Positions 1,306 to 47,590 of a DNA stretch of 64,000 bases are shown one piece after another. Under the pieces are notes generated by a model. The model had not been told where the DNA came from. It was given only the letters and a program-made list of their open reading frames with translations, and ran no database searches. Both the position numbers and the translations under genes were made by a program. Source of the DNA: an uncultured virus (IMG/VR IMGVR_UViG_3300011215_000019) (taxonomy: Duplodnaviria; Heunggongvirae; Uroviricota; Caudoviricetes); the IMG/VR virus record IMGVR_UViG_3300011215_000019, positions 1 to 64,000 of that record. One strand, 5' to 3'. Numbering within the stretch: position 1 is the first letter of the stretch; each line of letters begins with the position of its first letter.

Positions 1306-1328
1306 TGGTGGAGATGGGGAGAATTGAA
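1306..1328 (-). other. ssrA: att core = 3' end fragment of tmRNA (ssrA)
   Basis: Minus strand TTCAATT-CTCCC-CATCTCC-A-CCA: T-loop, T-stem, acceptor 3' strand with U70 (Ala identity) and CCA; 22 bp repeated at 47492-47513. Confidence 0.85.
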
Positions 1329-1364
1329 CTGCCCTATAGGCCGTTTTTGCCCCATGCGCTCACT

Positions 1365-1440
1365 CTAGGATCGCCGGAATCATGCGGTTTTTGCCTAGGT
1401 TGACTCTAGGTCGTTCTAGGCTTTGATGCTTTAAGCATCA
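1365..1440. repeat. Left att arm: phased CTAGG repeats and TTAAGCATCA sites (likely Int/Xis binding)
   Basis: CTAGG at 1395, 1406, 1416; TGATGCTTTAAGCATCA 1424-1440; matching motifs at 47383-47445. Confidence 0.7.
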
Positions 1441-1475
1441 TAGCAATCTGCCCTTGTAGGGTCACCTCACCGTAT

Positions 1476-1504
1476 TTGCAATGTCCTAATTTAGGGCATA
1501 TACT
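1476..1504 (+). promoter_or_regulatory. SigA-type promoter with palindromic operator in the spacer
   Basis: TTGCAA-17 bp-TATACT; spacer TGTCCTAATTTAGGGCA is a near-perfect inverted repeat. Confidence 0.8.
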
Positions 1505-1511
1505 GAATTCA

Positions 1512-1550
1512 CAAGCAAGGGCAAACAGCCCAGCTCGAACCCAAAAGGGG
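1512..1550 (+). promoter_or_regulatory. Double stem-loop 5' leader, copy 1
   Basis: CAAGCAAGGGC-AAACA-GCCCAGCT-CGAA-CCC-AAAA-GGGG; second copy at 1775-1813. Confidence 0.7.
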
Positions 1551-1555
1551 AAACA

Positions 1556-1732
1556 ATGAACGCCACACAGGAACGCAAGCCAGTCACCATGACCGCCGAG
1601 ACGCTTGCAGCCCGAGCATTCAAGTACGTTGCTCTTCAGCACCCATTCGCCAGCAATCGCGAGCTGAAGGAAATCGCTGGCAAGTACATGCGCCGAATGA
1701 TCGAAACCGGCATGATCATTATCGAAGGCTAG
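1556..1732 (+). CDS. Small unknown protein, 58 aa (not in ORF track); candidate anti-defence protein
   Basis: MNATQERKPVTMTAETLAARAFKYVALQHPFASNRELKEIAGKYMRRMIETGMIIIEG*; AAGGGG RBS; first gene after promoter. Confidence 0.75.
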   Translation: MNATQERKPVTMTAETLAARAFKYVALQHPFASNRELKEIAGKYMRRMIETGMIIIEG

Positions 1733-1774
1733 CCGGCCCGGCGGGGCGCAAGCCCCGCCCAATCAACCAAAAAT

Positions 1775-1813
1775 CAAGCATGGGTCATCGAACCTAGCTT
1801 CAACCCAAAGGGG
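1775..1813 (+). promoter_or_regulatory. Double stem-loop 5' leader, copy 2
   Basis: CAAGCATGGGT-CATCGA-ACCTAGCT-TCAA-CCC-AAA-GGGG. Confidence 0.7.
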
Positions 1814-1820
1814 TAATATC

Positions 1821-2096
1821 ATGGCTTCGAAAGCCACCGCCGAAAAATGGCTGAAGGATCTTGCAGAACTCGCAGCAACGAACGGCTGGCAACAGCTCGA
1901 TGAAATCAAAACTGTGATTCAGTCGCAAGCGATTAGTTTTGTGCGCGAGCCCCTTGGTGTTCGGGAATCCGTCACCTTGTTGACTTACTACAATTGGAGC
2001 ACAGGACAGGTGCAGCGATCTGCTTTCACCACAACCCGAAATAGCAATAGGGACATTACTCTGCGAGACGTTCCCAGGTTGCTTACATTCAAGTAA
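1821..2096 (+). CDS. Small unknown protein, 91 aa; candidate anti-defence protein
   Basis: ORF with AAGGGG RBS inside the repeated leader. Confidence 0.75.
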   Translation: MASKATAEKWLKDLAELAATNGWQQLDEIKTVIQSQAISFVREPLGVRESVTLLTYYNWSTGQVQRSAFTTTRNSNRDITLRDVPRLLTFK

Positions 2097-2105
2097 GGCC
2101 GCTCA

Positions 2106-2426
2106 ATGAACCAAACTGAATTTTCCGCTATCCGTCGATTGGTTGGCCTAACCGCTGAACAATTCGGCGACAAGCTTAGTATCAACCCGCGCACTGTTCG
2201 TCGTTGGGAGTCGGGTGCAACGATTATTTCGGATAGTGCCGCCGCGCTGATCCAGGACTTGCGCGCTACGCATGACCTCGATTTTGAGTCGTGTCTTGCG
2301 ATCGCTGGTCGGGGTGATATTGTCACGTTCCCCGAGGGTGACGGCGACCGGCCGAATAGTTGGTGGCTTGCCGTGGCAGCTCGAATCATCGACCGCATAC
2401 CCGACGCCCGCTTAGCATGGGCCTAA
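2106..2426 (+). CDS. XRE HTH protein, Aca2/YdiL (DUF1870)-like
   Basis: HTH IRRLVGLTAEQFGDKLSINPRTVRRWESG; C-terminal NSWWLAVAAR. Confidence 0.75.
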   Translation: MNQTEFSAIRRLVGLTAEQFGDKLSINPRTVRRWESGATIISDSAAALIQDLRATHDLDFESCLAIAGRGDIVTFPEGDGDRPNSWWLAVAARIIDRIPDARLAWA

Positions 2427-2478: not shown

Positions 2479-2994
2479 GTGAAGAAAACTATTGCCACTG
2501 CCGCCGTGCTGGCTGCTCTCGCGCTTACCGGGTGCACTTCGGGTAATCAGTCAGCTACGCCGGAACCGACCGCCACTGCCACGCCCAGCGCGTCGGAAGC
2601 TGTATCTGCGCCTGCATCTGCATCTGCATCTGCATCTGCAAGCGAATCGGTCAAGGCTAGCGCTTCGAATGCCGCCAAGCCGGACGCTGGCCAGGTGTGG
2701 GCTGACAAGATGATCAACCTGTTCTTGAATGGCAACAGCAAGTCAAAATTTGCTGACTTCAACGATGAATTGCCACACCACTACATCACCGAGTGGGGTC
2801 AGGACTCCGAAGGCGTTTTGAAGGTCACTGTCAAAGGTTCGAAATGGTCCGAGGATGACCTCAGCCTCCTTGGCCGAACCATCATGAGCACGGCCGGCGA
2901 AGAAACTGAATCTTTGACTCGTGTCGTGGTTGTTGATGACATCAAGAGCACCAAGGGCGAAGCGACTCGCGCAGATATTGGTGACTGGAATTAA
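2479..2994 (+). CDS. Lipoprotein moron
   Basis: GTG start after GGAGG; signal peptide with lipobox LTGC; Ala/Ser/Pro linker. Confidence 0.8.
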   Translation: MKKTIATAAVLAALALTGCTSGNQSATPEPTATATPSASEAVSAPASASASASASESVKASASNAAKPDAGQVWADKMINLFLNGNSKSKFADFNDELPHHYITEWGQDSEGVLKVTVKGSKWSEDDLSLLGRTIMSTAGEETESLTRVVVVDDIKSTKGEATRADIGDWN

Positions 2995-3036
2995 AAGAAA
3001 AAAATGCCCGCGCACTCGAAAGTGCGCGGGCATTTT
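2994..3036. terminator. Bidirectional terminator
   Basis: AAAAATGCCCGCGCAC-tcgaaa-GTGCGCGGGCATTTTT between convergent genes. Confidence 0.85.
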
Positions 3037-3044
3037 TGGCTCTG

Positions 3045-3446
3045 TTACTTGTTGCGGCGGTCGTTCAGGTAGTTCTGCCAGGCGAGGGTGAGGTAGTAAT
3101 CCGGGAAGGTCGACGGGCCGTTGGTGCGGCCGTAGTAGATCTTGTTACCGGTGTAGACGTTCCCTCCGTCTGCCGACAGGAACGAACAGGCAGCAGAAAT
3201 GGTCATCCCCTTGACCAGTCCGTCAATGGCGCCTGTGTACTTTCCGGCGTAGCGGCCCTTGTCGCGAAGGTAGCGCTGCCACGCCTTGATAGTCGCCGGG
3301 CCAAACTTTCCGTCCAACAGGTAGGCGGTGGTGTAGTGGCCGGTCTTCCGGAGCTCCACCTGCAAGGCGTGAGTGGTTTCCGAATACTTGGTCGCGCTGG
3401 CGTTCCAAACGGCGTCTTCCTTGATTGCTGTCGATGGGTATGCCAT
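3045..3446 (-). CDS. Stand-alone peptidoglycan-binding-like protein
   Basis: DGKFGPATIKAWQRYL and YTGAIDG motifs resembling the endolysin repeats; no catalytic domain seen. Confidence 0.65.
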   Translation of the reverse strand: MAYPSTAIKEDAVWNASATKYSETTHALQVELRKTGHYTTAYLLDGKFGPATIKAWQRYLRDKGRYAGKYTGAIDGLVKGMTISAACSFLSADGGNVYTGNKIYYGRTNGPSTFPDYYLTLAWQNYLNDRRNK

Positions 3447-4026: not shown

Positions 4027-4890
4027 CTAGGCGTTTTGGGTGTTCATGAACTTTTGGAATGCTTTGACGGTCATCGGTCCGAAGTCGCCGTCGATCTTGC
4101 CCGCGTAGAGCTTCTTTCGGACAAGGAAGCGTTGAAGCCCCTTGATGGTGACCTTGCCGGGCTTCCCGTCGATCAGGTAGCCCTTTGGGTAGTGGCCGAC
4201 CTTGCGAAGCCACGACTGCACGGCCTTCCAGGTCAGCGGTCCCGGCTTTCCGTCGACAATGCCGTTGTAGGTTCCGATGGCGCGCATGACGATCTGGACG
4301 GCTTTCCAGGTGGTCGCCCCGGCTTTGCCGTCGATGACCAGATCCTTGAAGTTCGTCGGCTGGGTTTTGGCCGGTGCGCTTGGCTTGGATGGCTTGGCAT
4401 TGCCCGCGGGCTTCACGTTGCCGATTCCTTCCGGTGCGCTGCCGGGGTCGAGGATGTAGCGTTCGAACAGGATGCGCGGGTTGAAGTGGCTGCTGAGCGA
4501 GCCGTTAGACCAGGTTTCGAAGTGCAGGTGCGGGCCGGTCACGGTGCCGGTCTTGCCCACGGTGCCGATGATCTGGCCAGCTTCTACCTTGTCGCCGACC
4601 TGTACGAACACTTCGTCGAGATGCCCGTAATACTGGCGGGCGTTATCGGTGTTTCGAATCAGCCCATGGTTGCCGGACTTTACGCCCTTCCAAAGGTGCG
4701 GATCGCCAGGGTATGAATTGGTTCGAACGGACTCGACGATGCCGCCGAATGCTGCGCGGACAGGGGTCCCCACGGGTGCGGCAATGTCGATGCCCGCGTG
4801 CGAGGTAACTACGCCGGTCACGGGGTGCTTCCGGTTCTTCGACCATTCCGAGGACACTCGGCCAGCGACAGGGCTAACCATTTTGGACAT
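4027..4890 (-). CDS. Endolysin: M23 peptidase plus three PG-binding repeats
   Basis: HAGIDI, YGHL, TGPHLHFE; DGKxGxxT repeats. Confidence 0.93.
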   Translation of the reverse strand: MSKMVSPVAGRVSSEWSKNRKHPVTGVVTSHAGIDIAAPVGTPVRAAFGGIVESVRTNSYPGDPHLWKGVKSGNHGLIRNTDNARQYYGHLDEVFVQVGDKVEAGQIIGTVGKTGTVTGPHLHFETWSNGSLSSHFNPRILFERYILDPGSAPEGIGNVKPAGNAKPSKPSAPAKTQPTNFKDLVIDGKAGATTWKAVQIVMRAIGTYNGIVDGKPGPLTWKAVQSWLRKVGHYPKGYLIDGKPGKVTIKGLQRFLVRKKLYAGKIDGDFGPMTVKAFQKFMNTQNA

Positions 4891-28769: not shown

Positions 28770-29204
28770 CACCGCCTTGTGTGTTTGGCTGTGTTGCCTG
28801 AGCTCTGCCGTCGCTGTTGTTGTGGTTGTTCTCGGCAGGGTGTGCGCTCGCTCGTAAGGAGGTAGCGGGTTTGCCTGTTGGCTGCTCACCCTTCGCTCCT
28901 TCCTGATGCTCCCAACAATTCGCGGGGAAGGTGACGTTGACCGAGGGTCTATGCCCCGGGGCTGTTGCCTGGTGGGGTGTCAGGCCCGGGGTGCGCTTTG
29001 GGGGTGGGGTGCAACTTCTATCCAGTGGGTTTGATGACGGCGTAGACTCGGCCCACTCGCATGGATGCTTGGTTGGGGGTCTTACCGTCAAGTGTGTTGG
29101 GGCAGGCCGTGATACCCGTTCGAACTCTTGGAGTTTCGGATCATGTCACGCCTTAGCGCCCGTCATGGCTATTTGAGCCGTGCGGGTTGGCAGGAACCCC
29201 TAAG
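28770..29204 (-). ncRNA. Candidate structured ncRNA in late leader
   Basis: No convincing ORF; several hairpins and a possible pseudoknot (see findings). Confidence 0.45.
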
Positions 29205-29278
29205 TGCCGTTGCAGAGATTCGAACTCTGGACTTCCCGCTTACAAGGCGGGCGCTCTGACCATCTGAGCTACAAGGGC
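29205..29278 (-). tRNA. tRNA-Thr(UGU)
   Basis: GCCCTTG-TAGCTCAG...CCCGC-CTTGTAA-GCGGG...CAGAG-TTCGAAT-CTCTG-CAACGGC-A; one C:C acceptor mismatch; CCA not encoded. Confidence 0.9.
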
Positions 29279-46245: not shown

Positions 46246-47376
46246 TTAATCCAGAGCGTCAGCTGCATTCTGATCATCATCATTGGCGAGCTGCGCGTAA
46301 ATGTTTAGCGTCGTCTGCGGCTTCTCATGCCCCAACCTAGCTTGAACAACGTGCACCGGCACGCCGGCCTGCAGTAGGTGCGTTGTATGTGCCTTGCGGA
46401 TTTCATGAATCCACGGTTTATCGTCCAAATCACCGTTCTTCACAAGGTCGTTGATGATTGGTTGCCAAGTTTCCTTATGGAAGTAGCTATTACGAAGGTA
46501 CGTTCCATCTGGTCGCGTGAAAATCAGTTCGCCTGGACGCATATCCCGCATATGCTCGATCAGGTCGGCCGATAGTTCCAAACCACATGTCACGTTTCGC
46601 TTAGCCTTCTTCGACTTCGGAGGGCCGATTTCTTCGCCATCGTCAGTAGCTTTCCAAGCGCGAGTAATCATCAACGTGCAGCGCTTGTCCGAAACGCGAA
46701 TATCTCGTTTGCGAAGTGCTGTTGCTTCGGAGTAGCGGATTCCGGTCTTAGACAGCACGCGAATAAATAGCTTGTAACGCTCTGGCACCGCGTCCTCGAT
46801 GATTTGCAGGTCGTCCTTGGACAAATACACCGGTTCGCGCCCGTCGTTCGTGTCTGGGTCTCCTACGCCCTTTGCGACGTTCTTGGTCATGCGACCTTCG
46901 TCGACGGCGGTGTTGAAGGCGCTCGATAACAGTGCGTGCACTTCGCCCTTGGTGCGGTAAGAGAGCTCTGTGCCCACGGCGATGTTGGCGCCTTTGGCCG
47001 AGCGTAAACCGTCCATCCATTCCATGACGTGTTCCTTGGTCACTTTGTCGATGGCCATGTTGCCGAGCTTTGAGCCTTCAATGTGAAACTTTGCGCGGCT
47101 CCGATATTTCTTGACCGTGCCCGACTGAACTTTGGTCAGCAGGTCGATATGCCTGGTGACGATCTCTTGGACTTTGGGCACGCGCTTGTCGTGCATCCGT
47201 TTCACTTCGGCTGCAGCTTTCAAGCTGTTGCCGTTCGCATCCAAGAATTCCTTGAAGGTGGTCGCCCTATCTTCGTCGTCGAAGATGCGCGATGACATCT
47301 TGCCGGTGTCCTTGTTTCGGTAGACGACCCGGTAGCCCGTGCCTTTACGTCGCTCGATTGTCTGAATCGTTGCCAC
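46246..47376 (-). CDS. int: Tyrosine integrase of P1
   Basis: TGIRYSE (R), KSKK (K), HEIR (HxxR), LGH, IYA (Y). Confidence 0.95.
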   Translation of the reverse strand: MATIQTIERRKGTGYRVVYRNKDTGKMSSRIFDDEDRATTFKEFLDANGNSLKAAAEVKRMHDKRVPKVQEIVTRHIDLLTKVQSGTVKKYRSRAKFHIEGSKLGNMAIDKVTKEHVMEWMDGLRSAKGANIAVGTELSYRTKGEVHALLSSAFNTAVDEGRMTKNVAKGVGDPDTNDGREPVYLSKDDLQIIEDAVPERYKLFIRVLSKTGIRYSEATALRKRDIRVSDKRCTLMITRAWKATDDGEEIGPPKSKKAKRNVTCGLELSADLIEHMRDMRPGELIFTRPDGTYLRNSYFHKETWQPIINDLVKNGDLDDKPWIHEIRKAHTTHLLQAGVPVHVVQARLGHEKPQTTLNIYAQLANDDDQNAADALD

Positions 47377-47382
47377 TTTGCC

Positions 47383-47445
47383 CTATGCCTTGTCTATGTT
47401 GTTCTATGTTGCGGTTAAGCATCATTTAGGCTGTTTTAAGCATCA
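47383..47445. repeat. Right att arm repeats
   Basis: CTATG at 47383, 47394, 47404; TTAAGCATCA at 47415 and 47436. Confidence 0.7.
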
Positions 47446-47491: not shown

Positions 47492-47513
47492 GGTGGAGAT
47501 GGGGAGAATTGAA
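47492..47513 (-). other. att core at P1/P2 junction (ssrA 3' fragment)
   Basis: GGTGGAGATGGGGAGAATTGAA identical to 1307-1328. Confidence 0.9.
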
Positions 47514-47590
47514 TTTCCCATATCGCCCTATTGGGCGCATCACCTAAAGCTGGCTTCCGCTAGATCTCGCGGATCTTACTTGACCTACCT

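Follow-up and report, generated by a model that had tools for sequence, protein, structure and literature searches.

Regulators of the Aca (anti-CRISPR-associated) type are the most productive signpost to anti-defence proteins. One of them, Aca2, acts at two levels according to the accessible part of Feussner et al. 2026 (PMC13551039): as a DNA-binding protein it represses transcription by way of an inverted repeat that overlaps the promoter, and it also binds hairpins in the 5' untranslated region (UTR) and so represses translation. The same part of that source distinguishes two classes of Aca2 RNA motif, "proteo" and "actino", the actino-motif being credited to Birkholz et al. 2024 (Nature). 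It places the transcription start 10-15 nucleotides (nt) after the DNA motif, with the RNA motif immediately after it and the start codon at a conserved position. It also describes RNA motifs between operon genes, states that one Aca protein often controls neighbouring operons, and reports that most Aca-regulated genes are unannotated and that many are not anti-CRISPR (acr) genes. In the accessible part of Usher et al. 2021, Aca2, YdiL and SO3848 are named as the sole proteins matching both Aca2 domains, and R30 of Aca2, the recognition-helix Arg, is described as required for DNA binding.

Here we describe a related locus from an uncultured virus of the class Caudoviricetes. The stretch of DNA that was analysed, called the window below, comprises bases 1-64000 of the 89,486-base IMG/VR provirus record IMGVR_UViG_3300011215_000019. 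Near its left end lie a promoter, two small cargo genes (ORF58 and ORF91, for open reading frames of 58 and 91 amino acids, aa) and a gene for a helix-turn-helix (HTH) regulator of 106 aa. We interpret the locus as an accessory operon under autoregulation by an Aca2-type repressor. It would lie at the attachment-site (att-site) end of a prophage integrated in the transfer-messenger RNA (tmRNA) gene of a Micrococcaceae host related to Arthrobacter or Glutamicibacter, with cargo that is most likely counter-defence or conflict-related; we give this reading a probability of roughly 0.6. The regulatory scheme is already published for Aca2, and the operon described here is a further instance of it. 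The features of the operon up to the regulator are as follows (pI, isoelectric point).

1476..1504, + strand: promoter TTGCAA (1476-1481), 17-nt spacer, TATACT (1499-1504); an operator-like inverted repeat (1481-1499) fills the spacer
1505..1555, + strand: 51-nt leader; bipartite hairpin at 1514-1535, followed by a smaller one at 1540-1549
1556-1732, + strand: ORF58, first cargo gene, 58 aa, pI 9.7, ATG start, clear ribosome-binding site, family-less
1737..1820, + strand: ORF58-ORF91 intergenic region with the GC hairpin GGCGGGGC-gcaa-GCCCCGCC at 1740-1759
1821-2096, + strand: ORF91, second cargo gene, 91 aa, pI 9.6, ATG start, clear ribosome-binding site
2106..2426, + strand: Aca2/YdiL-fold HTH regulator, 106 aa, ATG start, containing SWWLAVAARIID

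Aca2 of Pectobacterium phage ZF40 (acrIF8-aca2; PDB 7B5J, 7VJO-Q) resembles the regulator of the window in its N-terminal register, its DNA-binding Arg and the small gene upstream of it. The region upstream of acrIF8 is also similar, with a 16-nt repeat between putative TTGCTT and TATAAT hexamers and then a hairpin, and the dual DNA and RNA control published for ZF40 Aca2 (accessible part of PMC13551039) is a further likeness. The systems differ in that ZF40 Aca2 has about 18-22% sequence identity to our regulator, which scores just below the Pfam cut-off, and in that the 51-nt leader of the window is far longer than that of ZF40. The window also has two cargo genes, neither of them related to AcrIF8, and after the regulator a lipoprotein gene, and its host is a Gram-positive actinobacterium from a genus that rarely carries Cas1. 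In actino-motif systems, as far as the same source describes them, the order of promoter DNA motif, start, RNA motif and conserved start codon matches that in the window or its related loci, and the intergenic motifs and the use of one regulator for several operons also have counterparts there. YdiL of Salmonella (PDB 1S4K) and SO3848 of Shewanella (PDB 2OX6) are given in the accessible part of Usher 2021 as chromosomal proteins outside mobile elements and of unknown function, whereas the gene in the window belongs to a prophage accessory operon. Full-length homologues of the regulator are gp69 of Microbacterium phage Min1 and gp48 of Mycobacterium phage Typha, both annotated as HTH DNA-binding. 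Min1 shares the layout of promoter, inverted repeat and leader and the position beyond the lysis genes, and Typha gp48 is located close to the integrase. In Min1, gp69 is followed by a protein judged MucR-like from its CxxC...H...H pattern alone, and the neighbours differ.

Regulator, promoter and leader RNA

By sequence alone the regulator is a generic Xre-type HTH protein (28.1 bits to Pfam HTH_3), and in a profile search of PDB the proteins MBF1, HigA2, Aca2 and YdiL ranked together, all of them on its HTH half. The AlphaFold2 (AF2) model, with a predicted local distance difference test (pLDDT) of 95.9, contains three short helices, a long one spanning 43-68 and then a strand-helix-strand unit. 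This corresponds to an N-terminal HTH domain with a C-terminal beta-alpha-beta dimerisation domain. When the model was compared with PDB in Foldseek, the top ten matches were all Aca2, YdiL or SO3848 (TMq 0.68-0.74, 114-133 columns). In the ESM Atlas the structural neighbour of the regulator is a cluster at TM 0.84, 60% of whose members carry PF08965. Residue R29 aligns with R30 of Aca2 and is invariant in a 9-sequence alignment of the family. Among 20 relatives of the regulator, four reach the cut-off of the Pfam family Aca2_YdiL (PF08965, DUF1870) over model positions 1-108/112 (L020 41.3, L022 38.3, L015 32.3 and L018 23.8), while six are listed below the cut-off and ten are unlisted. As modelled, the regulator is a two-domain Aca2/YdiL-fold protein, and it is the structure that settles the question. 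An Aca2/YdiL-like regulator had been proposed for this gene in an earlier, sequence-only reading, and the structure comparison with AF2 and Foldseek agrees with that proposal.

The spacer of the promoter, TGTCCTAAtTTAGGGCA, is an 8-1-8 inverted repeat with 7/8 pairs, and its extended form ATGTCCTAAtTTAGGGCAT pairs at 8/9 positions. The promoter match (9/12) is in itself unremarkable, as three such matches were found in 2.5 kb where 1.2 were expected. The 19-nt repeat pattern, which was derived from this very site, occurs once in the 64 kb. The support for promoter and repeat is comparative: the same layout, leader included, recurs upstream of HTH relatives in 13 other loci. Including the window, 16 promoter units in 14 loci have a TTGACA-like -35 element, an inverted repeat of 16-19 nt filling the spacer, a -10 element of the form TAnnnT and a leader of 51-57 nt (measured in 13 of the units, with similar lengths for the other three). 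The halves of the repeat carry compensatory changes in 5/6 aligned repeat pairs, and the repeat sequence shifts together with the HTH protein between loci, which is the pattern expected for operators co-evolving with a dimeric repressor. It reads TGTCCTAAtTTAGGGCA in the window, GCACCCTATtTTAGGGTGC in L015 and L039, and GGTCATAAtTTATGACC versus CGTCGTAAatTACGACG in a pair of paralogous loci within a single genome. The palindromic promoter spacer that the sequence-only reading had pointed out is conserved and changes in step with the regulator, and as in acr-aca2 operons, an inverted-repeat DNA motif, here a predicted operator, overlaps the promoter of the regulator's own operon. Most likely, a dimer of the 106-aa repressor would bind the 8-1-8 repeat between -35 and -10 and shut off its own promoter.

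The two paralogous loci (L037 and L038, genome G404) have 109-aa cargo genes that are 94% identical, differing operators, and differing regulators of 108 and 103 aa. Judging from these sequences, the difference looks like a specificity switch.

The leader carries the bipartite hairpin AGC-aa-GGGC-aaaca-GCCC-a-GCT at 1514-1535, and a second hairpin, CCC-AAAA-GGG (1540-1549), includes the ribosome-binding site. The minimum free energy of the folded leader is -13.5 kcal/mol (z -3.56 in comparison to shuffles), and the bipartite hairpin lies about 10 nt into the leader in every sequence examined. In an alignment of eight leaders, 87.5% of the cells were paired as compared to 71% in shuffles (0/500 as high), and the covariation score was 0.469 versus 0.172 in shuffles (0/500 as high) and at most 0.112 in slid controls; the structure was derived from the same eight sequences, which somewhat inflates the contrast with the shuffles. 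The start codon of ORF58 is 51 nt from the -10 element, a conserved distance found also in several other loci.

A covariance model (R1) was built from the eight leaders, the window leader (39.9 bits) being one of the training copies. It found two non-training copies in L026 (31.6 and 30.0 bits), each reaching as far as the start codon of a further small gene, and one on the minus strand of L039 (20.6 bits), likewise ahead of a small gene, where the promoter, TTGCAATGTCCTCTTTAGTGACATAGACT, is strikingly similar to that of the window. No family in Rfam 15 matched the leader. The 5' UTR RNA motif of acr-aca2 operons has a counterpart in the hairpin at 1514-1535, with its covariation and with leaders of 51-57 nt, and going by the published description the hairpin is likely to be the actino-motif. 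The regulator would probably also bind this hairpin, as Aca2 does, and so limit translation of the first cargo gene.

A second copy of the motif may lie between the two cargo genes. A 24-nt stretch there (1793-1816) is a direct repeat, 79% identical, of the sequence beside the ribosome-binding site at 1529-1552, and the spacer may represent the leader motif in a degenerate, internal form. A strong hairpin and then the leader motif ahead of an internal gene are clear in L026 and L025. A GGGT/ACCT stem at about 1782-1794 was also considered as a clear second hairpin copy and was dropped, R1 giving only 1.6 bits at 1790-1821. L026 and L025 have three copies of the leader motif each (oriented coordinates 560-2300). 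Two of them have promoters with the same operator and stand before and right after the regulator gene; the third has no promoter and is preceded by a strong GC hairpin. Their arrangement suggests that one regulator controls several small-gene operons in these loci.

Cargo genes and related loci

Relatives of the regulator were found in 16 of 401 Actinomycetales genomes (E <= 1e-5), in 1/27 host-genus genomes (two loci; the genus is that of the nearest relative, G387) and in 3/401 host-family genomes (E <= 1e-12). Further relatives were the genome locus L003 and the phage proteins Min1 gp69 (38.7%) and Typha gp48 (28.2%). A scan of metagenome contigs with the profile A1 gave no further loci.

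The cargo of the 14 loci comprises 20 proteins in at least 14 families, so that variable small genes do stand upstream of the homologues, as the sequence-only reading had anticipated. Variable genes beside a conserved regulator are the classic signature of an anti-defence locus, a signature that leaves the target defence unspecified. Many of the cargo proteins in the other loci are very acidic (pI 4.1). Out of 15 that were searched, none had a Pfam family and two matched PHROGs of unknown function. Min1 (L031, 3160-3430) has an acidic ORF that lacks annotation; it begins at 3242, upstream of gp69, and is preceded by promoter, inverted repeat and leader motif. This ORF is a relative of the L022 cargo (33% identity, E 2e-5) and has no in-frame stop ahead of a terminator-like hairpin.

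ORF58 and ORF91 had almost no relatives. In 5.8 billion clusters, each had a single relative at 95% identity, which for ORF91 was P0010. A search of all 1.84 billion representatives added P0013 for ORF91, a protein of 94 aa with 38% identity over the full length, sharing MASKAxAEKW and RSAFTT with it. A match of ORF91 to a repetitive 925-aa protein was regarded as compositional. Neither protein matched anti-CRISPR (Acr), anti-defence or defence models in Pfam, PHROGs, NCBIfam and PADLOC. A scan of phage genomes for ORF91 gave chance-level matches only, and its alignment A5 found no further loci in metagenome and viral contigs. The AF2 model of ORF91 (pLDDT 75.2) has a single helix packed on a 5-stranded antiparallel sheet; it had no significant match in PDB and only sub-threshold neighbours in the ESM Atlas. 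As far as these searches tell, ORF58 and ORF91 are near-orphans, that is lineage-specific small proteins, and new unannotated candidates.

The order and sizes of ORF91 and the regulator, 91 aa and then a 106-aa Xre-type HTH protein, would also fit a toxin-antitoxin pair in HigB-HigA-like order, the toxin being ORF91 and the antitoxin the HTH protein, and the HTH half of the regulator does resemble the HTH domains of HigA2 and MqsA. This explanation is extremely improbable. The full-length fold of the HTH protein matches Aca2/YdiL and not an antitoxin, and ORF91 matched no toxin family in Pfam at E <= 1. A conserved pair was likewise not found: ORF91 has two real relatives in the 1.84 billion representatives as compared to a widespread HTH family, and no relative in the cargo found at the other 13 loci. 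The sequence-only reading had named such a pair as the case that would overturn it; this case finds no support, as the ORF91 family is not paired with other regulators.

That reading had proposed the two small proteins as candidate new anti-CRISPR or other anti-defence proteins. In the strict form of the proposal, ORF58 and/or ORF91 inhibit the CRISPR-Cas system of the host and the HTH protein is their Aca. The Aca2 fold together with the acr-aca-like architecture, and the variability of the cargo between loci, would suit this, and Cas1 is present in five of ten other genomes carrying such loci (absent from five). A relative of the regulator in L014 is also found directly beside a CRISPR array. 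An anti-CRISPR role is nevertheless doubtful, because Cas1 was found in just 1/27 genomes of the host genus. The three Micrococcaceae genomes whose homologues are closest (G404, G452, G537) also lack Cas1, the two proteins lack similarity to known families in the four databases above, and many Aca-regulated genes are reported as not acr in the accessible part of PMC13551039. Nothing ties ORF58 or ORF91 to CRISPR-Cas, so the anti-CRISPR part of the sequence-only reading found no support, and we consider a strict anti-CRISPR operon quite improbable.

In L014 (1-1500, 1495-1821) the regulator relative, a distant one, begins roughly 40 nt past the final repeat of the array, which has a 61-bp period and the repeat ATGCTCCCCGCGCAGGCGGGGATGAGCC. 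This neighbourhood may reflect a chance insertion or a functional link.

Two freshwater metagenome contigs correspond to the locus. One aligns with 1301-2491 with 11 changed letters and one gap; its run may be the source sample, and it counts as non-independent support. The other, of higher depth, matches 1485-1561 (10 changed letters) and then jumps to 2436-2460, before the lipoprotein gene. The contig joints, 1561>2436 and 1440>2326, hint at variants that differ in what stands between leader and lipoprotein, and the jump in the contig of higher depth may point to a related prophage carrying different cargo there.

Prophage setting and the lipoprotein gene

The operon lies at the end of the prophage opposite the integrase, directly beside the att site and beyond the converging lysis genes. 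The features around it are listed below (PG, peptidoglycan).

1307..1334, - strand: attachment-site core, remnant of the tmRNA 3' end and prophage border; 28-nt repeat recurring at 47492-47519
1420..1444, no strand: inverted repeat GCTTTGATGCTTtAAGCATCATAGC, possible integrase arm-type site; 12-nt arms, 92% complementary
2479..2994, + strand: lipoprotein (lipobox LTGC), co-oriented, GTG start
3000..3037, no strand: bidirectional intrinsic terminator between the unit and the converging lysis genes; 17-pair stem with flanking T and A runs
3045-3446: PG-binding protein (converging lysis gene)
4027-4890: peptidase-type endolysin (converging lysis gene)

Bases 1-1300 are host DNA (68% G+C) with crcB-like ORFs and a DUF2568 membrane protein. 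The two 28-nt att copies are 93% identical, and the copy at 47492-47519 adjoins the integrase ORF (46246-47376). In G387 the 1300-base flank is found with 84% identity, abutting a complete tmRNA gene. From the repeat and this junction it follows that the prophage extends from about 1307 to 47519; going by the sequence, its size is roughly 46 kb and its insertion site is the tmRNA 3' end. The nearest named relatives of the regulator are from Arthrobacter sp. S41 and Glutamicibacter arilaitensis, on which ground the host was taken to be a member of the Micrococcaceae.

The att copy at 47492-47519 is a tmRNA 3' fragment only, like that at 1307-1334, and a complete tmRNA was found nowhere in the 89-kb record. 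A second integrated element probably stands in tandem to the right of 47519. Repeats like TTAAGCATCAT are present near both ends of the prophage, at 1420-1444 and at 47415-47445 on the integrase side, and may be arm-type binding sites of the integrase. The prophage also contains a tRNA-Thr (TGT) gene at 29204-29278 (-). It was considered as the attachment site and rejected, as its 3' end mismatches the att repeat. In L022, L024, L026 and L021, the Aca2-type operon is found within about 0.1-1 kb of a tRNA gene and appears to be the first unit inside an integrated element, as in the window.

With its 58 aa, its pI of 9.7 and its place about 220 nt from the att core, adjoining the putative arm-type repeats, ORF58 could be suspected of being an excisionase or recombination directionality factor, which would make the HTH protein an ordinary early regulator of the phage life cycle. 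ORF58 had no match to Xis or HTH_17-type families in Pfam at E <= 1, and in the other loci the matching leader and promoter precede unrelated, mostly acidic proteins. Unrelated cargo behind a common leader and promoter favours exchangeable cargo over a core recombination function, and such a role is very unlikely.

The lipoprotein gene follows the regulator in the same orientation and is probably the last gene of the unit. No terminator-like site was detected between the promoter and 3000, the one at 3000-3037 being the first, and all four genes would be co-transcribed. In L011 the lipoprotein has a counterpart (52% identical) after an HTH homologue that is 64% identical to the regulator; L011 ends at a provirus border, and the genes upstream of its HTH gene are outside the sequence. 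A TAGACT motif upstream of the lipoprotein gene is common to the window and L011, and the gene may have a weak promoter of its own. The lipoprotein matched protein families only weakly, the Cor and TrbK exclusion families at E 0.04. When it was searched alone against viral contigs no further loci were found, and a scan with the neighbouring PG-binding gene returned the same IMG/VR record only. The Ser/Ala-rich linker of the lipoprotein (2560-2650) is encoded by a short tandem repeat, GCATCT, in which a metagenome contig has a 12-nt length difference. All the elements listed in the sequence-only reading were confirmed at its coordinates. The reading had included neither the lipoprotein gene and terminator nor the leader hairpin at 1514-1535 or the position next to the att site.

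The lipoprotein and the setting bring up a cassette expressed in the lysogen, whose products, the lipoprotein among them, would guard it against superinfecting phages; this would be defence or conversion and not counter-defence. The unit is placed accordingly, at the prophage end beside the att site and outside the lysis cassette. Several related loci are also near a tRNA gene, the lipoprotein is kept with the regulator in L011, and its faint matches are to exclusion families. These matches are far below any threshold, however, and no defence model in PADLOC was matched. Moreover, the tight repression published for Aca2-type regulators suits genes that are needed early in infection. We regard a protective cassette as plausible, though of low probability.

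Weighing of the evidence and significance

A number of observations weigh against an Aca2-type counter-defence operon. The sequence-only reading had suggested comparing 2106-2426 with Aca2 by a hidden Markov model as a check: the score to Pfam Aca2_YdiL was 23.6 bits, 0.2 short of the cut-off of 23.8, over residues 1-57 (the HTH half only), and hhalign of the regulator with ZF40 Aca2 gave a probability of 90.7% over just 52 N-terminal columns. The layout of promoter, repeat and leader was absent by eye in seven other loci with more distant HTH relatives (L014, L016, L018-L021 and L029). L025 and L017, both outside the training set of R1, have main leaders that the model missed at E <= 1, as do L037 and L038, and for the intergenic region of the window (1737-1783) it gave a weak 10.9 bits, with an E of 0.024 in 1.8 kb. 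The leader hairpin was likened to the actino-motif by the published description and not by its consensus. ORF58 and ORF91 are basic, unlike many of the acidic cargo proteins elsewhere. A host-protective cassette expressed in the lysogen would also account for a lipoprotein gene behind the regulator and for the place of the unit at the end of the prophage, and Cas1 is as rare in the host genus as described above.

The Aca2-type accessory operon remains our preferred reading, with the structural model of the regulator, the recurring architecture, the covariation in the hairpin, the variable cargo and the position in the prophage all supporting it. During infection or lysogeny, ORF58 and ORF91 would most likely act in counter-defence or in another conflict-related accessory role, rather than against CRISPR specifically. 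Our best guess for the cargo, judged from sequence and context, is a role in anti-defence or another accessory function. A more specific version is tentative: ORF58 and ORF91 might found two new Micrococcaceae counter-defence families directed against non-CRISPR immunity, each under Aca2-type translational control (by the strong and the degenerate copy of the leader motif), with ORF91 as an inhibitor of an unseen alpha+beta fold.

To our knowledge, phages of Actinobacteria have so far yielded few known anti-defence proteins. The locus offers two candidates, of 58 and 91 aa. Because the regulatory principle is already published, its value is in these candidates rather than in a new mechanism. 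It also provides a simple signature, namely a promoter with an 8-1-8 repeat, a leader of 51-57 nt with a bipartite hairpin and a gene for an Aca2-fold protein, which in 14 loci marks at least 14 unrelated, unannotated families of small proteins. Screens for defence and counter-defence in Arthrobacter, Glutamicibacter and Microbacterium could draw on these cargo genes directly.

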